From the IMG/VR virus record IMGVR_UViG_2609459830_000021: a stretch of 37,447 nt of DNA; one strand, given 5' to 3'. Below are positions 5,644 through 27,658 of this stretch, piece by piece. Origin of the DNA: a virus. Lineage: Duplodnaviria > Heunggongvirae > Uroviricota > Caudoviricetes. How positions within the stretch are numbered: the first letter of the stretch is position 1; each line of letters begins with the position of its first letter. The translations under genes and the position numbers were made by a program. The notes below the pieces were generated by a model. The model was not told where the DNA came from. It saw only the letters and a list, made by a program, of their open reading frames with translations, and did no database searches.

Positions 5644-5756
5644 AAATAACTCCGCATGGTCTGTTTATCGGACAGATCCGAATGGTTGAGTAAATAAGGC
5701 TTATCGCTGCCCCCGCGAATAAGCGCACCGCTCCCGGAACGCTTATCTCCGGAGAC

Positions 5757-5784
5757 AAAAAACCCCGTACGATGACGGGGTTCC
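5757..5784 (-). terminator. hairpin plus U-tract between portal and scaffold genes
   Basis: minus-strand ccccgtcatcgtacgggg followed by ttttttgtc. Confidence 0.4.
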
Positions 5785-5800
5785 GTTAAGTTCAGGATAT

Positions 5801-7945
5801 TCATAGCGGCAATTCATGCATCCGCTGTTGTAGTGTATGTAGCATCTGTTGCTGAAGAGCTTCCTGCTCCTGTTCCATATTCTGTATGCCGGTAATGATT
5901 TCTGCCGTATGCGCCTGGTTGAGCGCATCCACATAACGCTGTCCCTGTGCCGCGGCGACATCCCGTTGTGCGCCAGCATTATCCCGTTGCGCAGCTGCCT
6001 GTGCCCTGGCAGCTTCTGCTTCCAGTTTAGCCACCCGGCCTGCCATTTCGCGCATCTGCAGTTCCTGTTGTTGCTGCTCCTGGGCCTGTTGCTGCTGAGC
6101 GGCCTGCTGCTCTTCCGGGGTCATCTCATCCGGTGATTTTGGTGTCCCCAGCGCCGCACGAATACGTTCGACAAATTCCTGTTTCTGCGGCACATCCAGA
6201 AGGTTAACCCACAGGTCGAGCACGACGGCCTGCACCTGAGGTGGCAGCCCCTGAATAACCTCTGACATTCGCTGTGCAAGCTGTGCCTTAAACGCCGGTG
6301 TCTGCTGAACAGGAGCCAGCGCAATATGTGTATTTAACCTTGAAATATCATTGGTCAGTTCACCATTATCACCTTCAGCATTGAGAACAATGGTCTGGCG
6401 ACGCTGGCGATCATCACGATTAATCACCACCGCATGATTACGCCGCTTTTTCAGGCCATCGAGAAGATAAGCGAGCAACAGCCTTCCCACCTGCTGGCAG
6501 GCAAACTGGTAGTTATCGTTGATTTCGGCAAGGGTTGTGGCTCCCTGCTCCACCAGGTTGCTGATCGCCACGCCGGACGATGCATTTGAATCCTGCCCGA
6601 GAAATGCGGAATAAACCCCCATCGTGTCCTGGATAAGTTTTTCCGACTCCTGCATGACCTGAAACTGCTGGCTGGCAACCTGAAAATCCTGTTCAACCCG
6701 GAAAACATCAGCAACGCTTTTCTGATTTTTTCGGGCCGGATTCAGTTTAATAATGCCATCCGGACGCTCGATCTGCTCCATCAGCTCGTTGTCTGACAAC
6801 TGGGTGGCATCCTCGTCCATAATCACGCGTTTGGCCTGAAGCAACCACGTCAGTTTTATACGACGAAAATTCACCTCATCCTGTGCCGGAATGGCCCGGG
6901 AAATCAGCCCGTAAGGCTCCCCGGTTTTATCCTTCCGGTATCCCCAGAAGGGAACCAGCGGGAACATCCCCTGCGGCGCACTGCAGGGGCGATCCACAAT
7001 AAAGTGCGGTCCCACAAACCAGGCTTCACGAATACGACTTACCCGCCCGACTCTCACCTGCACCCGCCCGGATGCCACAGCCACCGCATGCATCAGATTA
7101 TTTTTATCAAAGGCCACCACCCGTCCATTACTGAGTTCAATCACCGGAAGACGCTCGAATGTACGGTAATAAACCACCTGAAGCAGCACACGACGGCGTT
7201 CACGCTGAAGCCATTCGTTCTCCTTACGATCCCATGACTGATACTCTTCCCATGCACTCATCAACGGACTGGGCTGGCCTTCAGTAACCGTGGTATCGAC
7301 AAAACCACGCCAGTCATCAATGGCATAATCGATAACCTGAGCCATTCCCGGGAATGTGGCTTTTGCCTCATCGGTATCCATCCAGCGGCGGCGCATCAGC
7401 CAGCGGCAGTCACTTAAATCAGCTTCCCGGCTGAGCCAGTCCCAGAACACTTCATTCCGGCTGACAGTAGACACCTTAAACTCAGGCCCGAACGGATCGC
7501 TGTTCCGTCTGACCTCCACCCAGCTGAGCCCCGCCTTGATTTGTTCCGCATAGGCATCAGAGCGGGCTTTATTCATATTGCCAAGGCGGCATGCATCGGC
7601 AAATTCAGCATTAATAGCTTCAGCCAGTTTTTCAGTTTCATCATCTGGCTCGTCTGACATCACCACCAGATCAGTCCGCGTTTTGGCCTCCATACCCAGA
7701 ACACCATCAACGGTAGGCGCGATGAGGTTATGGATGGTCATCGGCTGACCGCGATCTTTCAGTACCTGAAGAACTTCTGGTGGCAACTGGTCACCATCGT
7801 AATACGCACAGGCCTTGTTTGCGGCATCGCGCCATTTAGGCTGACTGTCAATATCAGAACAAAGCGCCTGTAACTGGCGCTGAGAAAAACGCGGCGTGGC
7901 TCCGTTGTCGTTTTTCGTCGCCATGGTATTAGTTTCATTTTTCAT
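5801..7945 (-). CDS. portal protein (714 aa)
   Basis: large protein directly downstream of terminase large subunit with stop/start overlap, Q/A-rich C-terminal tail; typical portal size for P22-like or 933W-like head modules. Confidence 0.7.
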   Translation of the reverse strand: MKNETNTMATKNDNGATPRFSQRQLQALCSDIDSQPKWRDAANKACAYYDGDQLPPEVLQVLKDRGQPMTIHNLIAPTVDGVLGMEAKTRTDLVVMSDEPDDETEKLAEAINAEFADACRLGNMNKARSDAYAEQIKAGLSWVEVRRNSDPFGPEFKVSTVSRNEVFWDWLSREADLSDCRWLMRRRWMDTDEAKATFPGMAQVIDYAIDDWRGFVDTTVTEGQPSPLMSAWEEYQSWDRKENEWLQRERRRVLLQVVYYRTFERLPVIELSNGRVVAFDKNNLMHAVAVASGRVQVRVGRVSRIREAWFVGPHFIVDRPCSAPQGMFPLVPFWGYRKDKTGEPYGLISRAIPAQDEVNFRRIKLTWLLQAKRVIMDEDATQLSDNELMEQIERPDGIIKLNPARKNQKSVADVFRVEQDFQVASQQFQVMQESEKLIQDTMGVYSAFLGQDSNASSGVAISNLVEQGATTLAEINDNYQFACQQVGRLLLAYLLDGLKKRRNHAVVINRDDRQRRQTIVLNAEGDNGELTNDISRLNTHIALAPVQQTPAFKAQLAQRMSEVIQGLPPQVQAVVLDLWVNLLDVPQKQEFVERIRAALGTPKSPDEMTPEEQQAAQQQQAQEQQQQELQMREMAGRVAKLEAEAARAQAAAQRDNAGAQRDVAAAQGQRYVDALNQAHTAEIITGIQNMEQEQEALQQQMLHTLQQRMHELPL

Positions 7946-16060: not shown

Positions 16061-16324
16061 GTCCATAAGAAAGCCCCTCCGGAGAGGGGCTGGAGAGTGG
16101 CGCTATGTGCCATTGCATGGTGCCGGGTGCCTCCCGGTGAGTTCAGCCCGGTGCCACTAAACCCGCGTCATTCTCGTTTTGATAATCAGAGATTATACCG
16201 TCACCAGTCGCCCCTCCGCTCAGGGGGATTCACCATGCAGTTTTTTCTAACAAATTCTCATCCGGGCAGACAACATTCAACTGACTTAATTGTGAGGTAT
16301 GTAACATTCCCGTTGAACGGATAC

Positions 16325-18671: not shown

Positions 18672-19355
18672 TCAGTAGCGATGCAGTGAAGGCGGCAACT
18701 CTTTGTTCTTAAGCCTTTCCCATGCCAGAAGGTTCGTCGGCCCGTCAGGCTCATAAATATCTATATCCCGCGTGTGATTAATTAAAACGCCCCTCGCCCT
18801 CCCGATGATATACGAGAACTCATAGCCGTAGTCGTGGCATATGCCGGAATAGCCAGACTGAATCAGTTTTAATGCGGGATACAACTCACGGAACAATGCC
18901 TGTGAGCGGTTGGCATAATCCCACAGCCATACAAGGCTGTCTGTTTCTTTTGCGGAAAGCCCGTTGGGCTTCTTCTCTTGTTTGCCAGTATTTTTCTCGC
19001 ACTGGCTGAAATAGCAGTCTTCCAGTTTTTCGAACACATCCCACGCCTGATCGGTTTCTAGCATTTTGGCGTGACGGGCTGCGCCTCGTTCTGTCCAGAG
19101 GATGAGGGAGCGAACGTTACGGGCAATTTTCACAGAGTAGTTAAAAGCTACTCTGTGCTTGAACTCACGTAAAGTTTCACCTTCAAGTTTGAAGAAGTGT
19201 TTTTCCTCAATGAAACGACCTTTGTTTTCGTGGTGATTCTGGCGAATACGAATAGCTTCTGTGCCGTAAAGGTGCGCCAAAAGTTCGGTAGTGATAACGG
19301 GGATCTGCTTGTAAGTAATCGTGGAGAGTGTTTCAACAGAGATTTGAGTTGTCAT
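18672..19355 (-). CDS. ORF6N/KilA-N-type domain protein, paralogue A (putative antirepressor, 227 aa)
   Basis: shares [16 protein letters not shown] and [39 protein letters not shown] blocks with paralogue B (20274..20939); C-terminal halves unrelated. Confidence 0.6.
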
Positions 19356-19513
19356 AATGACGCCCTCGAGTGGTTTCTTAATAACTCACCACCGACGACG
19401 CCAATCGTCTGGTGGTGAACTGTGCAGGGTTGGCGTAACCGGGAAACCGACCGGCGCGGATCTCTCCGCCCCCACACAGCCCACCATAATTCAGATGTGC
19501 GCGTGCATACGAC

Positions 19514-19593
19514 AATAAAAAACACGCTCGCGGCGTGTATCTGTCGCGGTCTCTATCCAGGACGCCAATCCCGACGCCAGATTTTGCTGGCGC
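19514..19593 (-). ncRNA. candidate small RNA A (promoter, 5' hairpin, intrinsic terminator) upstream of ORF6N gene A
   Basis: minus strand: TTGACG (19624-19629), 18-nt spacer, TATATT (19600-19605); 5' hairpin cgccag-caaaat-ctggcg (19575-19592); terminator acacgc-cgcga-gcgtgt + UUUUUU (19516-19538); whole unit conserved in copy B. Confidence 0.45.
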
Positions 19594-19808
19594 GTGAGGA
19601 ATATAGCCCCGAATAAATCATCACGTCAATCACCTTGTTTTCCTCGCACGATGTCTTAGCCACCGGATATCCCACAGGTGAGCCGTGTAATTGAAGGCTT
19701 TAACGTCAGATTCTTTTGGGATTGGCCTGGGTTTATTTCTGGAACGTTTCGTTGGAAGGTAATTGCAGTTTTCACAGACTATATCGGTAATGCTTCGTCG
19801 CTGTCGTC

Positions 19809-20273: not shown

Positions 20274-20939
20274 TCAGAATTCAAATTGTCTTGCCCGCAG
20301 GCTTTTCAGCATTGGCATGGCCCGCTGGATAACGGAACTTGACATGTCGAGACGTGTTACCTCCCTCAGTAGCGCGTCTCTGTTCTTCGTCACCATGTAG
20401 ATGGTCTCAAACGCAATGTCATACAGCTTGTTCGTGTATGAGGAGTTCAGCTCTTTCATAATGGGATACAGGTGTTTGCTGATGTCCTGGGCTTTTTCCA
20501 TCCAGAGCTGCATGTAGCAAAGGAGGATGATTTCTTCGGCTGTGAATTGTGGCTGAATCTGCGGCTGCTGTTCGGTTGGTGCTGTTTTTCCCTGGCTGAA
20601 ATAGCAGTCTTCCAGTTTTTCGAATACCTCCCACGCCCGATCGGTTTCGAGCATTTTTGCGTGACGGGCTGCGCCGCGTTCTGTCCAGAGGATGAGGGAG
20701 CGGGCATTTTTACCAACTAACCCGATTGTTTCGGGTCTGTTCTTAAACTCGCGTAATTCGTTTTTTTCAATTTTAAAGTAATGCTTTCCGGGCATGAATC
20801 GCGTCGTGTTGTTCAGAAAGTTATCAGAAATGTTTTTGATTTTTGTTCCGTAAAGGTGAGCCAACAGTTCAGTAGTAATTACGGGGATCTGGTTATAGGT
20901 AACAGGGGAAAGGTTTTCGACAGAAATTTGAACAGCCAT
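20274..20939 (-). CDS. ORF6N/KilA-N-type domain protein, paralogue B (putative antirepressor, 221 aa)
   Basis: see paralogue A; ATG at 20939. Confidence 0.6.
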   Translation of the reverse strand: MAVQISVENLSPVTYNQIPVITTELLAHLYGTKIKNISDNFLNNTTRFMPGKHYFKIEKNELREFKNRPETIGLVGKNARSLILWTERGAARHAKMLETDRAWEVFEKLEDCYFSQGKTAPTEQQPQIQPQFTAEEIILLCYMQLWMEKAQDISKHLYPIMKELNSSYTNKLYDIAFETIYMVTKNRDALLREVTRLDMSSSVIQRAMPMLKSLRARQFEF

Positions 20940-21101
20940 AATGACCTCGCGTTTCGATAATTTTTACCTCGCCACCGTCAGGTGCTAATCATCGTGGTGG
21001 CGAACTGTGCGGGGTTAGCACTACCGGTCGAAACATCCGGCGAGCCTTTCGGCTCCCCCACACAGCCCGCCATAAATCGCGAATGTGACTGTGCTTAGCG
21101 C

Positions 21102-21178
21102 ATAAAAAAACCGCCAGCGCGGTTATGCACCGTTTCGATATCCGGGGTGCTAATCCCGACGCCAGGTTTTGCTGGCGC
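21102..21178 (-). ncRNA. candidate small RNA B (paralogue of sRNA A) upstream of ORF6N gene B
   Basis: minus strand: TTGACA (21209-21214), 18-nt spacer, TATATT (21185-21190); 5' hairpin cgccag-caaaac-ctggcg; terminator aaccgc-gctg-gcggtt + UUUUUUU (21104-21122). Confidence 0.45.
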
Positions 21179-21281
21179 GTGAGGAATATAGCCCCGAACA
21201 CGCGACGTTGTCAAACTGATGGCATTGCAGATCCCTACGCAATGTAACACTATGTGTTATACATTAATAACGGAACAAAAA

Positions 21282-21652
21282 ATGCGCATTTTTAAAAACG
21301 CCTGGTTTGAGCGATTTGCACGCAAAACAAAATATCCGACCAATCACTGCGCGAAATTGTTAAACAGGCTGATAACGGGCTTATCTCAGCAAACCTGGGT
21401 AACGGCGTTATCAAGCAACGTCTGCCACGAGTCGGTGGCGGCAAATCTGGCGGTTATCGCACAATCATTTTCTATCGCGTCGGCACAAGGGCCTTTTTCG
21501 TATATGCATACGCAAAAAATGAACGTGAAAATATAACCGCTACTGCGGAAAGTGCATTTCGGAAGGCGGCTCCTCACGTACTCAATCTAACAGATGAACA
21601 ACTGGCACAACTGATTCTACAGGGTCAGTTTACGGAGGTACCCAATGAGTAA
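21282..21652 (+). pseudogene. RelE/ParE-superfamily (HigB-like) toxin gene interrupted by a frameshift in an A-run
   Basis: frame a: MRIFKNAWFERFARK… (21282 onward); frame b from ~21325: KISDQSLREIVKQADNGLISANLGNGVIKQRLPRVGGGKSGGYRTIIFYRVGTRAFFVYAYAKNERENI…EVPNE ending TAA 21650-21652; the switch lies in aaaacaaaa (21324-21332). Confidence 0.6.
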
Positions 21653-21962
21653 AAATTACCGCAGTGATGCGCTTGCATCCGTACATGAAATGATGGAATC
21701 GCTTCATGATATCGGCGCAGTAACGAAACAGACTATGCGAGAATTCGATGAAACTTGTCTCCAGCCAGCGCCGGTAATGTCTCCGGAAAGGATCCGTGCA
21801 CTGCGCGAACGAGAGCATCTGTCTCAACCTGTTTTTGCCAGATACCTCAACGTCAGTAAAAACCTGATATCAGACTGGGAACGTGGTGTAAAACGGCCGG
21901 GAGGTGCCGCTCTTCGCCTTCTTTCAGTCGTAGAGAAAAACGGGATCCAGGTAATATCATGA
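21645..21962 (+). CDS. HTH (XRE-type) antitoxin, HigA-like (105 aa)
   Basis: ATG overlaps toxin stop (ATGAGTAA); C-terminal HTH …LSQPVFARYLNVSKNLISDWERGVKRP…; toxin-first order typical of higBA-type modules. Confidence 0.6.
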   Translation: MSKNYRSDALASVHEMMESLHDIGAVTKQTMREFDETCLQPAPVMSPERIRALREREHLSQPVFARYLNVSKNLISDWERGVKRPGGAALRLLSVVEKNGIQVIS

Positions 21963-21981
21963 TACTCCAATACAACAAAAC

Positions 21982-22000
21982 CCGCCGAAGCGGGTTTTCA
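21982..22000. terminator. bidirectional intrinsic terminator between convergent higA-like and doc genes
   Basis: cccgccgaagcggg flanked by aaaa and tttt; identical hairpin recurs at 22822-22840. Confidence 0.6.
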
Positions 22001-22012
22001 TTAGAAGCACCT

Positions 22013-22498
22013 TTAGTTTTGCTGTTCTATTTTAAGCTTGATAGTTTCATACAAAACAATAGTTGCGCCTGTTTTACATAATTCCCGGCTGTCATACGCA
22101 CGAGACCAATAACACAACCAGTTCTCGAGATCTTCTCGAGTATAGGTTTTGCAGGCCAGTCCCTCTGCCATTTCCACGATTTCATCGCCTGGTGCTGTTA
22201 ACTCATAGCCATTCAACAACAAGAAGACATAACCAGCCATCATAGCTGTTCGTTTGTTTGCATTAGCAAATGGATGATTCTGAATCAGACTTTCAATCAA
22301 TACTGATGCCAGTACAAACATGTCATTAGTCTGTTCATACCATCGAACCATGCTGGGACGAGACTGAGAAGAACTTAAATTATCAACACTCAGCACACTA
22401 ACAGGTTCATCTGGTGTTTGAAGCTCAATTAAAAGGCGATTAATTTCGGTAAGATCATCAAACGAAAGGTAGTGCACTCCTTCAACAATCTCAGCCAT
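22013..22498 (-). CDS. doc: Fic/Doc-family toxin (Doc-like, 161 aa from ATG 22498)
   Basis: Fic motif HPFANANKRTAMMAGYVFL (HxFx(D/N)xNKR); ORF track start 22507 is TTG, ATG 22498 preferred. Confidence 0.7.
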   Translation of the reverse strand: MAEIVEGVHYLSFDDLTEINRLLIELQTPDEPVSVLSVDNLSSSQSRPSMVRWYEQTNDMFVLASVLIESLIQNHPFANANKRTAMMAGYVFLLLNGYELTAPGDEIVEMAEGLACKTYTREDLENWLCYWSRAYDSRELCKTGATIVLYETIKLKIEQQN

Positions 22499-22516
22499 AG
22501 AGCACAATACCCATCA

Positions 22517-22696
22517 TTACACTTTTGAAAGTTCTTCCATTGCCTTCTCGTAACGAGAAAAACCGAAATCGAAAGCATTTTTCACCTGCTCACGATGAGT
22601 GCAATTTTCATCGATAGCCGGGCGCGGAGCTGCCACAACGCTTTTATCGCGAGGGGGAATAGTCAATCGCGGGTGTTTTTTTAGTGCGTAGCTCAT
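22517..22696 (-). CDS. putative antitoxin for Doc (59 aa from ATG 22696)
   Basis: small ORF immediately upstream of doc on same strand (phd-doc-type arrangement); ORF track start 22741 is TTG; family not recognised from sequence. Confidence 0.4.
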   Translation of the reverse strand: MSYALKKHPRLTIPPRDKSVVAAPRPAIDENCTHREQVKNAFDFGFSRYEKAMEELSKV

Positions 22697-22821
22697 TGGG
22701 TGTACCCTTACTTCTCCGTCCTGTTCTTTAACAAAAATCAAGTCAATACAAAATTAGTCAGGCTAATGTTGTTAGCATAGCCTAATACCAATCGTATTCA
22801 CAACCACAGTAAGTGAAAAAA

Positions 22822-22840
22822 CCCGCCGAAGCGGGTTAAG
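22822..22840 (-). terminator. Rho-independent terminator downstream of hok
   Basis: minus-strand aacccgcttcggcggg followed by ttttttcac. Confidence 0.55.
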
Positions 22841-22905
22841 TGCGGGTGCGTTGAGGATGCCTGACACATCAGAGGTGGCGAGGGATTTCTCCCTCGCCTG
22901 GTCTC

Positions 22906-23061
22906 TTACTCCTCAGGTTCGTAAGCTGTGAAGACAGCAACCTCCGTCTGACCGGTTCGGATTCGTACCTCGCAGAGGTCTTTCCTCGTTACCAGTGCCG
23001 TCACTACGACGGTAATACAGATGACGATCAGGGCGACTAACATCGCCTTTTGCTGCTTCAT
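22906..23061 (-). CDS. hok: Hok/Gef-family type I toxin (51 aa)
   Basis: MKQQKAMLVALIVICITVVVTALVTRKDLCEVRIRTGQTEVAVFTAYEPEE is near-identical to HokD/RelF as recalled; overlapping upstream in-frame ORF to 23118 corresponds to mok. Confidence 0.85.
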   Translation of the reverse strand: MKQQKAMLVALIVICITVVVTALVTRKDLCEVRIRTGQTEVAVFTAYEPEE

Positions 23062-23104
23062 AGCCTGCTTCTCCTTGCCTTTCGGCGCGTAAGAGGCTAA
23101 CCTA

Positions 23105-23170
23105 CATATGTCTAGCATGAAATTGGCCTCAGATTAATGTTAGGCGTCTTGCAGGACGCGTAATGTTAAC
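23105..23170 (+). ncRNA. sok: candidate Sok-type antisense RNA overlapping mok translation initiation region
   Basis: expected by hok/sok architecture; plus-strand TTGCCT-17-TAACCT promoter-like elements near 23085-23112 and hairpin gcgtc-ttgcag-gacgc at 23145-23160; boundaries approximate. Confidence 0.3.
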
Positions 23171-23306
23171 TGGGGCTTTTCTCTGTCTGCCTTACGGTGG
23201 CATGCCCGAGGCAGACAGCCTCAAGCACCCGCAGCAATTCTACTTAACTCTCGCTTTACCGCAAACCGTTTTTACCCGATATGGGAATTCCCATATCGTA
23301 ATGAAT

Positions 23307-23411
23307 TCAGTTCCCTAGTCGATCCATCAAAAACACAACCAGGCAGTAAACGCCCACAACAGCAATAACAGCCAGCGCACCTTCCATTGCCAGTGATATA
23401 TCATCCGACAT
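23307..23411 (-). CDS. small hydrophobic peptide (34 aa) with strong RBS
   Basis: hand translation MSDDISLAMEGALAVIAVVGVYCLVVFLMDRLGN; AAAGGAGGGAAT immediately upstream of ATG 23411; not in ORF track. Confidence 0.35.
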   Translation of the reverse strand: MSDDISLAMEGALAVIAVVGVYCLVVFLMDRLGN

Positions 23412-23529
23412 ATTCCCTCCTTTGGTGTTAATCCCGGCGAACGTTTTTACCCCCACCGACAAATAACATATACTAAAAAATCAATAGCCATAGCAACGCC
23501 TGTAATTGCAAATGCTTCAGGCCAGTTCA

Positions 23530-24111
23530 TTAGCGCACCTCCTGCGGCGGTTCTGGTAGCGGCATCCAGTCGGTTACATTGCGGCTCTGTGTTTCGAAAA
23601 ATTCATCACCATTACGGACTACATCAAAAAACTCACCGTCTCGATATTGCGCATAAAGAACGAATGCGCCATCACATAAAATAATTACGTGCTGACCGTC
23701 ATCCGGCATTCGCTCACTACAGCTTATCCAACCATCCAGAGTTACCGGATGGTTGGTTGACGTTTCCGAGATTTCCCGAAAATTATTGGTTGACGAACCC
23801 TTATTTTCCCGAAAGTTTCCAGCCTGAAGCATGGCGGCGCTGTCTGGCGGGGCAGCATATAGCGGCACGTATATTTCCGGTTCCTTATCAGCACCGGGTT
23901 GCTCTTCCAGTGAGAATGTCTTTCCGGTAAATCGATTCATATAAAGCACGGGCTCTGCTTCCAGCGAAGCCTGAGCAACAAGGGCCAGTGCTAAATCCAA
24001 CTCAATTGCCTCGAGAGAATTTTTGAATGCTGTCTGTTTTACTGCAAATTTCATCGCCTTTACATTTTCACTAACATGACTGATTAACTGCTCTTTTGTA
24101 AAAGTGGTCAT
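23530..24111 (-). CDS. DUF551-like phage protein (193 aa from ATG 24111)
   Basis: C-terminal …DGWISCSERMPDDGQHVIILCDGAFVLYAQYRDGEFF… resembles DUF551; AAGGAG 7 nt upstream of ATG 24111 (ORF track start 24171 is GTG). Confidence 0.5.
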   Translation of the reverse strand: MTTFTKEQLISHVSENVKAMKFAVKQTAFKNSLEAIELDLALALVAQASLEAEPVLYMNRFTGKTFSLEEQPGADKEPEIYVPLYAAPPDSAAMLQAGNFRENKGSSTNNFREISETSTNHPVTLDGWISCSERMPDDGQHVIILCDGAFVLYAQYRDGEFFDVVRNGDEFFETQSRNVTDWMPLPEPPQEVR

Positions 24112-24167
24112 CTCATTCTCCTTTGATGCGAATGCCAGCGACAATTGAAGCCTGATAGCTAATTTAC

Positions 24168-24578
24168 TCACAGTACCGCCTCCTGAAAATTCCCCTGATA
24201 GAAAGCCAGCACGCGCTGCATAACTTCACTATTCCGGCACTCGCGACAGATTATGTTCAGGCGTCTATCGTAGCGGCGAATTTCTCCGTCTGGTAACTTT
24301 CGAATCAATGTCTGGTCAGTTGTTTTCTCCGGTGTCTTACGCCATACGCGATACACCTGTTCTGATGCAAAAACACCGTATTTACCGGACATGTATAAAT
24401 CGCCACAAGCCAGTACATCCACAAGGCAACGTCTGACTGAATGCCAGCCTGCTCCCGTCGCTCTCTCCAGTTGCGATATCGTCATGCGTTCATTTTTGCG
24501 TACCAATCCGATAATTCGTGCCTTCAGTTCTTCCCGCTGTTCGTGTGTAAAAGGTTTCGCCATAAGCGCCTCCGGCAA
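24168..24578 (-). CDS. hypothetical HTH-containing protein (136 aa)
   Basis: …RMTISQLERATGAGWHSVRRCL… HTH-like; coupled to flanking genes. Confidence 0.4.
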   Translation of the reverse strand: MPEALMAKPFTHEQREELKARIIGLVRKNERMTISQLERATGAGWHSVRRCLVDVLACGDLYMSGKYGVFASEQVYRVWRKTPEKTTDQTLIRKLPDGEIRRYDRRLNIICRECRNSEVMQRVLAFYQGNFQEAVL

Positions 24579-27361: not shown

Positions 27362-27658
27362 TCAGATATTCATCAGGATTTGCTCAGAACGTCCGGCCCC
27401 AACCGGACGTTTTTTATTTGCATGAACGTTAATGGCATGCTGGAAAGCCCGGCTGATCGGACTGATATCAGATGCCATCTGGAACGCGCATAAAATCGCC
27501 GCGATGTATCGCCAGTCGGTACGACTGACCTTCGATTCATGGCAGCCAATCATCTTTGCCAGTCCCCTTTGCGTCAGAGCTGACAGGTTGATGAGTAAAT
27601 CTGTTTCTGCGCGATCAACGTCACGCTGGGATAGTTTGCTGTAACTTGTTTGTGTCAT
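27362..27658 (-). CDS. cII: CII-like transcriptional activator
   Basis: C-terminus …NKKRPVGAGRSEQILMNI parallels lambda CII …NKKRPAATERSEQIQMEF (from memory); position downstream of cro. Confidence 0.7.
   Translation of the reverse strand: MTQTSYSKLSQRDVDRAETDLLINLSALTQRGLAKMIGCHESKVSRTDWRYIAAILCAFQMASDISPISRAFQHAINVHANKKRPVGAGRSEQILMNI

Follow-up and report, generated by a model that had tools for sequence, protein, structure and literature searches.

A stack of toxin-antitoxin cassettes in the nin region of an Escherichia coli lambdoid prophage, with a frameshifted RelE-like toxin gene beside a Doc module and a hok/mok/sok locus

Results

The RelE-like toxin gene is one nucleotide short

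The subject of this study is a stack of toxin-antitoxin (TA) genes in a 37,447-nucleotide (nt) stretch of DNA (the window) from a virus of the Caudoviricetes, IMG/VR record IMGVR_UViG_2609459830_000021. An initial annotation, made from the letters alone, had placed three adjacent TA modules of different types in this stack, namely a RelE/HigB-like toxin with a helix-turn-helix (HTH) antitoxin (21282-21962), an antitoxin-Doc pair (22013-22696), and a hok/mok/sok locus. Family assignment with hidden Markov models, which that annotation had proposed as a check, gave the RelE/HigB-like and HTH, Doc and hok/mok/sok families as expected, at or close to the positions named and with matches far above chance. 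Two modules are type II and one is type I, and one of the three toxin genes is broken.

The toxin gene that is not intact lies on the plus strand at 21282-21652 and belongs to the RelE/HigB2-like family PF06296 (called 'RelE', previously DUF1044). A Pfam search splits the PF06296 match over two frames. In the frame that opens with the ATG at 21282, residues 1-34 match profile positions 1-34, and in the other frame a 103-residue stretch matches positions 22-120 with 115 bits against a cut-off of 27. The lesion was found by aligning the DNA to three loci (L005, L006, and L012) that encode an intact allele, P0001, and it consists of one A missing from an A5 run at about 21324-21327 (CGCAAAAAC to CGCAAAAC). 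Conceptual repair retrieved P0001, an intact 123-amino-acid (aa) E. coli protein found on 654 contigs, with 98% identity. As it stands in the window, the frame from the 21282 ATG goes out of frame at codon 15/16 and ends at 21536, while the homologous RelE frame is open only from 21311 (about 21311-21652) and contains no ATG, GTG, or TTG start. Because an open frame without any of these starts is not listed, no open reading frame (ORF) with a canonical start ends at 21652 in the ORF list. In E. coli ML35, the Prokaryotic Genome Annotation Pipeline (PGAP) reports a 112-aa RelE product that is reached only via an ATT start.

A single base lost from a run of A is typical of a sequencing or assembly error, and the repaired ORF is only three residues away from the intact allele, with 10 synonymous codon changes, so an error in the homopolymer could be masking a toxin that is really intact. 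We consider this extremely improbable. Allele-specific 61-nt megablast queries against complete E. coli genomes detected the frameshifted A4 allele with its linked single-nucleotide polymorphisms in 34 independently finished genomes, compared with 33 genomes that hold the surrounding 2.7-kb stretch described below, and the intact A5 allele in 10 others, where it lies away from Doc and hok in every context examined. The identical lesion is present in ML35, in the O104:H4 outbreak lineage, and in phage PhiR12_3, and the gene is frameshifted in all three copies of the stack that were aligned. In the O104:H4 assemblies, moreover, the toxin gene has a further 1-nt deletion distinct from the first, and the antitoxin protein there is unchanged. 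Since ML35, O104:H4, PhiR12_3, and the 34 complete genomes all have the lesion, a sequencing artefact is ruled out. We also considered, and rejected, that the A4 run might be read by programmed frameshifting or transcriptional slippage: the run is short, a slippery heptamer is lacking, and elsewhere the A5 allele is found intact. The ratio of 10 synonymous to three replacement codons between the repaired window ORF and the intact allele indicates that the gene was under constraint until recently. From its sequence, we conclude that the RelE-like toxin gene is a pseudogene through a 1-nt deletion.

The HTH partner is intact and is coupled to an antirepressor unit

The downstream gene (21645-21962, plus strand) encodes an intact 105-aa HigA2-like HTH antitoxin or regulator, which matches HTH_3 (E 1e-7), HigA-2 of Vibrio cholerae in PDB 5jaa (E 8e-8), and phrog_2104 (E 3e-43). 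The gene carries a GGAGG ribosome-binding site of its own, its start and the toxin stop overlap (ATGAGTAA), and the identical protein, WP_000042397.1, is encoded in ML35 and O104:H4. The toxin-first order, the overlap of stop and start, and an antitoxin with an N-terminal tail and a C-terminal HTH all recall HigB2-HigA2 of V. cholerae. The unit differs from that system in that the toxin is a frameshifted pseudogene whose similarity to HigB-2 is weak (E 0.012) and in that it is coupled back-to-back to an isrK-C4-antirepressor operon. Thus, the families proposed for this module stand (PF06296 and HTH_3), whereas the toxin ORF is frameshifted and has no canonical start, and the module reads as a dead toxin with a live antitoxin or regulator. 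In most of the loci with the intact RelE allele (L005-L011), a third gene comes next at about 5696-6001 and encodes a second HTH_3 protein of about 90-101 aa. This gene is not in the window, where a terminator and the Doc cassette occupy its place.

In every locus examined (window 20274-21962, and L003, L005, L006, and L012), the RelE/HTH unit is divergent from isrK, C4, and an ORF6N antirepressor gene. The coupling holds in nin regions and next to integrase genes alike, and the RelE/HTH genes together with isrK-C4-ORF6N behave as one mobile unit. The intergenic region between the RelE/HTH and isrK sides contains a near-palindrome, TGTAACAC-TAT-GTGTTA, at about 21240-21260. The window has two P1-immI-like RNA units on the minus strand, at 19408-19606 and 20993-21191, each with an Rfam C4 antisense RNA, its a1/b1 targets, and isrK. 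Downstream of each unit is an antirepressor gene (18672-19355 and 20274-20939, respectively). The genes ninB and ninE are located between the two units.

Doc is paired with a small protein unrelated to Phd

The second module is on the minus strand. Its toxin gene (22013-22498) encodes a 161-aa Doc (death-on-curing) protein, a Fic-fold kinase, that matches TIGR01550 (E 1.3e-35, 122.2 bits against a cut-off of 38.65), PF02661, and phrog_577, annotated 'Doc-like toxin' (E 1e-50). Its motif HPFANANKR fits the kinase-type Fic motif HxFx(D/N)(A/G)NKR, and the protein aligns to the PDB Doc chains 9vzc and 3k33 across the HPFANANKRTA / NANKRTA motif. A search of the literature on Doc in lambdoid prophages returned nothing, and one on TA genes of the nin region returned a single paper.

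A gene for a 59-aa protein (22517-22696, minus strand) lies 18 nt upstream of Doc. The protein matches phrog_2208, and searches by sequence or by profile gave no Pfam, NCBIfam, or PDB match. Compared directly with Phd, it gave an hhalign probability of 0.2%, so the Phd/YefM fold that marks a Phd-Doc module is not seen here. The 59-aa family is small (17 clusters, all in Enterobacterales), and its members hardly differ in their last 23 residues. In the AlphaFold2 model, residues 1-33 lack regular structure and would be disordered, and a helix with a block-mean predicted local distance difference test (pLDDT) score of 84-94 spans residues 34-57. The model is a single helix, and no DNA-binding domain is evident in it. 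In all four other contexts where a Fic/Doc gene was called, the 59-aa gene precedes it, with a spacing of 7-18 nt. These contexts are Ewingella, where the pair sits inside a myovirus tail and baseplate gene module (L016 and L017, 3001-3670); Salmonella, where it is in an island next to hok, ParDE, and VapBC; a dinI/umuDC neighbourhood; and several E. coli nin regions. In a fifth context, the short metagenomic contig L022, the next gene downstream of the 59-aa gene is an unassigned 76-aa ORF. The upstream regions of the Doc cassette, aligned across genera, are too diverged for an operator to be defined.

The Phd C-terminus blocks Doc as a helix. The 59-aa protein is the probable antitoxin of Doc, because its gene is upstream of Fic/Doc in all four called contexts and because a helix-only partner resembles the Phd C-terminus. 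Alternatively, the 59-aa gene may be a leader or a moron, with Doc a solitary or otherwise-controlled Fic-fold enzyme, as the lack of likeness to Phd/YefM or any antitoxin family and of a predicted folded DNA-binding domain would allow. We regard this as unlikely given that the pair is kept at close spacing across genera and unrelated genomic contexts, that the conserved part of the protein is just the single helix with which Phd neutralises Doc, and that a Doc without an inhibitor would be lethal. The module therefore resembles Phd-Doc of phage P1 and chromosomal Doc modules (TIGR01550; PDB 3k33, 3dd7, and 9vzc) in its Doc domain, in its kinase-type Fic motif, and in the small gene directly upstream whose product ends in a conserved helix. 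It differs in that the upstream protein is not Phd/YefM-like and has no predicted DNA-binding domain, and in a C-terminal extension of ~30 residues on Doc (161 aa versus 126 aa). The antitoxin-Doc pair initially annotated is thus borne out for Doc (TIGR01550), and the small upstream gene is present but not Phd-like, its role being assigned from pairing and a predicted helix. If true, this assignment would define a helix-only antitoxin family unrelated to Phd.

The hok/mok/sok locus keeps its regulatory elements

The third module is also on the minus strand, where the full-length hok mRNA is placed at 22843-23230 from PF01848, RF01794, and homology to phage 933W. Within it, the 51-aa hok coding sequence occupies 22906-23061 (PF01848, E 1.3e-23), and the 70-aa mok coding sequence, which is in frame with hok, occupies 22906-23118, as read from the ORF list and as annotated for mokW. 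A Sok-like antisense RNA over the mok start is placed on the plus strand at 23110-23180, transferred by alignment from the annotated sokW of 933W. The Rfam sok family RF01794 gives 114 bits against 59 on the hok-sense strand at 23056-23230, and since the match is on this strand, the matched element is the leader targeted by Sok.

The two ends of the hok mRNA can pair 5′ to 3′ by fold-back, GGGUGCUUGAGG with CCUCAACGCACCC, and in the minimum-energy fold of the 393-nt mRNA the first 12 nt pair with the 3′ end (z = -7.6). Sok is predicted to form a long stem-loop with a U-rich tail (-33.9 kcal/mol, z = -5.4), with its 5′ tail covering the mok AUG. A putative sok promoter, TTGCCT-17-TAACCT, is at 23075-23103. 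A sigma-70 scan found four sites versus 3.8 expected and, with a count at chance level, is uninformative for the stack; the promoters named for hok, sok, and the Doc cassette come from inspection by eye or from homology.

The locus is 92% identical in nucleotides to hokW/mokW/sokW of 933W over about 435 bp, this homology being confined to about 22843 to about 23277. At the protein level, Hok and HokW are 86% identical. The locus has in common with hokW-mokW-sokW (933W and Sp5) an in-frame mok extension, a Sok RNA antisense to the mok start, and an mRNA whose 5′ and 3′ ends pair by fold-back. It differs in being in the nin region, where hokW is not (hokW is near attR), in having a 3′ terminator hairpin that 933W lacks, and in being preceded by a DUF551 gene and peptide genes. 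From these features, 22843-23230 can be read as a complete hok/mok/sok locus, as first annotated, with expression and toxicity assigned by homology.

More distant relatives are hok/sok of plasmid R1 and the chromosomal hokC (gef) and hokD (relF) genes. Hok here is 45% identical to Hok of R1. Also comparable is relBE-hokD (relF) in the Qin prophage of E. coli K-12, where a type II RelE-family module stands beside a Hok-family gene in a lambdoid remnant, as here. That arrangement differs from the stack in its RelE family and antitoxin type. In the stack, moreover, the hok locus has retained the full set of regulatory elements, and the Doc module lies between.

Identical terminator hairpins bracket the Doc cassette

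Intrinsic terminators had been proposed between the modules, and a terminator scan (seven terminator-like sites versus 2.8 +/- 1.6 in shuffles) agrees. A bidirectional terminator hairpin at 21977-21998 lies between the first two modules, and a second hairpin at 22818-22837, on the minus strand, ends the hok transcript. Both hairpins are formed by a perfect 20-nt direct repeat, AAAACCCGCCGAAGCGGGTT, whose first copy is at 21977-21996; none is expected by chance. The two copies bracket the Doc cassette exactly. The O157, O111, and C325 loci, which have no Doc, have a single copy of the hairpin, downstream of hok. Paired hairpins around Doc and a single copy in loci without it suggest that the Doc cassette may have been inserted or exchanged by recombination at the terminator.

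At the other side of the hok locus, a perfect 22-nt palindrome, CGATATGGGAATTCCCATATCG, can be read from the sequence at 23277-23298, between the stop of a 34-aa ORF and the hok promoter. It is kept in the O157, O111, and C325 copies and is not a classic terminator because no T-run follows it. An 11-nt direct repeat, CGTTTTTACCC, at 23267-23277 and 23442-23452 brackets the 34-aa gene. The 933W hokW homology ends exactly at the first CGTTTTTACCC copy, which suggests a recombination junction.

Two small hydrophobic ORFs lie upstream of hok

A hydrophobic, unassigned 34-aa peptide with a strong ribosome-binding site at 23307-23411 had been annotated as following the stack. The gene is there as described (minus strand), but it lies upstream of hok in the direction of transcription, in a DUF551 operon, and two small hydrophobic ORFs are present rather than one. 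The 34-aa product, MSDDISLAMEGALAVIAVVGVYCLVVFLMDRLGN, is predicted to be a single-pass membrane peptide and is annotated in RefSeq as the hypothetical protein WP_001278450.1. AAGGAGG stands 5 nt ahead of its ATG, and the peptide has a 19-residue hydrophobic core (best 19-aa Kyte-Doolittle window 2.72) and is net acidic. Six synonymous changes and one conservative replacement relative to a 90%-identical copy in C325 indicate that the ORF is a genuine coding gene. An exhaustive phmmer search of 1.8 billion representative proteins found relatives only at >=79% identity; no Rfam, Pfam, NCBIfam, or PHROG match was obtained, and a literature search by sequence or accession found no paper. The region of the gene is present in 673 of 5,426 complete E. 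coli genomes (about 12%), and in 10 of 10 sampled contexts the gene lies between the DUF551 gene and hok.

The second ORF (23447-23530, minus strand) is unannotated, encodes 27 aa, and starts in overlap with the DUF551 stop (TAATG). It is possibly a second small membrane protein. In C325 a 6-nt deletion leaves the reading frame of the ORF unbroken, and the C-terminal stretch FLVYVICRWG is conserved. The ORF is less constrained, with several replacements in its N-terminal half and a premature stop in the O111 copy, and its exact sequence is missing from the protein collection searched. The DUF551 gene itself (23530-24171, minus strand; PF04448, E 6.6e-21) is the first of the DUF551/27-aa/34-aa run, which is found ahead of this hok locus in every case. 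A 51-nt segment at 23482-23532, spanning the end of the DUF551 gene and the start of the 27-aa ORF, matches the P1-like phage-plasmid Salmonella phage SJ46 (81526-81576) with 88% identity.

The 34-aa peptide, perhaps with the 27-aa one, might be tied to Hok as a membrane partner, an antagonist or immunity factor, a second membrane toxin, or a holin-like helper made from the early-right transcript. The gene's position immediately upstream of hok in every sampled context, its purifying selection, and its strong ribosome-binding site would fit this, as would a single-pass membrane product like Hok. We nevertheless think such a tie rather unlikely. The experimentally functional hokW-sokW of 933W/Sp5 has no 34-aa peptide, so hok/sok can work without it. 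Searches of Rfam, Pfam, NCBIfam, PHROG, and the 1.8 billion representative proteins linked the peptide to no type I toxin or other family, it is net acidic as typical type I toxins are not, and in a promoter scan the antisense promoter-like matches opposite its gene were only at chance level. We therefore place the two peptides with the DUF551 operon rather than in a TA pair. Less probably, they could act as Hok modulators, either as membrane antagonists or immunity factors or as co-effectors of lysis timing, which would make a three-part membrane module.

Genomic setting and distribution of the stack

The window is an E. coli lambdoid prophage whose early-right operon is on the minus strand. 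The minus-strand order is cII (27362-27658), replication genes (O/P-like), DUF1627, DUF977, DUF551, and the stack region, followed by the ORF6N antirepressor gene, ninB, ninE, more antirepressor genes, DUF1364, rusA, ninH, Q, and lysis and head genes. This order from cII to Q confirms the nin-region label given at the outset, with the stack between the replication genes and Q. An Rfam STnc100 small RNA (16061-16266, minus strand, 165 bits) lies just downstream of the Q antiterminator gene, and L005 has two tandem STnc100 copies.

The 2.7-kb stretch 20900-23600 is present at a coverage threshold of >=80% in 33 of the 5,426 complete E. coli genomes, with 97.5-99.8% identity, and its holders include ML35, FORC strains, and the O104:H4 outbreak lineage. 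RefSeq labels the products there as a RelE/ParE toxin, an HTH protein, a death-on-curing toxin, a hypothetical protein, HokD, and a hypothetical protein. The block as a whole was found in no deposited phage genome. Doc is downstream of hok in 125 complete E. coli genomes, and the RelE remnant is added in about 33. A 2.5-kb segment of Salmonella enterica (L018, 2496-5009) groups hok/sok with the 59aa-Doc pair, ParDE, and VapBC.

Discussion

We consider it likely that the stack is a mosaic of independently mobile cassettes ('morons') that comprises two live TA modules and one orphan antitoxin, with the small peptides belonging to the DUF551 operon. Several observations argue for the mobility of the cassettes: the hok block is common with 933W only between about 22843 and 23277, the 59aa-Doc pair is found in four unrelated contexts, identical 20-nt hairpins flank Doc and occur as a single copy in loci without Doc, and the RelE/HTH unit is consistently paired with isrK, C4, and ORF6N whether in nin regions or next to int.

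In order along the early-right transcript on the minus strand come the DUF551 gene with the two peptide ORFs, the self-contained hok/mok/sok module, and the two-gene Doc module, with the RelE/HigA2-like remnant on the opposite strand. The hok module would act as in hokW-sokW and R1, with a stable, folded-back hok mRNA that is silent and a short-lived Sok that would block translation of mok, to which hok translation would be coupled. Upon loss of Sok, for example on prophage induction or prophage loss, Hok would be expected to depolarise the inner membrane. Phosphorylation of elongation factor Tu (EF-Tu) by Doc would halt translation, except when the 59-aa partner has its C-terminal helix bound to Doc. 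From module 1, the HTH partner alone would still be made; it probably represses its own transcription and could possibly counter related toxins that come in from outside. In P22 immI, Mnt controls ant. By analogy, and less probably, the HTH protein, intact after the death of its toxin and encoded back-to-back with the isrK-C4-ORF6N operon in every locus examined, could have been co-opted to repress the antirepressor.

The initial annotation had instead seen three functional TA pairs that jointly make up a prophage-stabilisation or anti-phage island, to which the 34-aa peptide would be an additional part. Each of the three toxin families is indeed recognised, and stacking of TA modules recurs, both in the Salmonella locus with hok, 59aa-Doc, ParDE, and VapBC and in the 125 complete E. 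coli genomes where hok and Doc are adjacent. We find three functional pairs unlikely, since the RelE-like ORF is frameshifted without a usable start in all three stack copies aligned and the same allele is in 34 complete genomes. A PADLOC scan of all products gave only weak generic HTH and Fic matches, and no defence model fits. For the characterised homologue hokW-sokW of Stx2 phages 933W/Sp5, HokW is toxic, SokW rescues, and the system depends on RNase III and Hfq (Takada et al. 2021, PMC8621323). It also brings faster lysis and doubled phage release after mitomycin C, which favours help with lysis on induction rather than defence (PMC8621323). Under the reading as a mosaic with two live modules, stabilisation or anti-phage activity is still a plausible candidate function of the stack.

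Some points weigh against the mosaic as we describe it. A truncated RelE protein is formally conceivable, as PGAP still calls the ATT-start product in ML35. No similarity to Phd or any known antitoxin could be detected in the 59-aa protein, and the promoter scan found no strong sigma-70 promoter for the Doc cassette. That the 34-aa gene accompanies hok in all 10 sampled contexts could reflect a functional tie and not mere synteny. For every component of the stack, toxicity and neutralisation are predictions from the genes. A stronger version, in which the tie of the peptides to Hok and the co-option of the HTH protein are both functional linkages and the 59-aa protein founds a new antitoxin family, is improbable when all of it is taken jointly.

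The toxin families in the stack are known and already annotated in public genomes, and one close homologue, hokW-sokW, is characterised. The leads that come out of this analysis are the Phd-unrelated partner of Doc, the two orphan membrane peptides fixed beside hok, and the coupling of RelE/HTH to isrK-C4-antirepressor; these leave the current understanding of TA biology unchanged. The analysis does bring a correction, in that annotation by automated means or by eye would count three TA systems here, the O104:H4 outbreak lineage included. The third module is, as far as its genes tell, an orphan antitoxin that could still matter as an anti-addiction factor or a regulator, and the duplicated terminator hairpins around Doc illustrate how accessory cassettes are assembled in the nin region.

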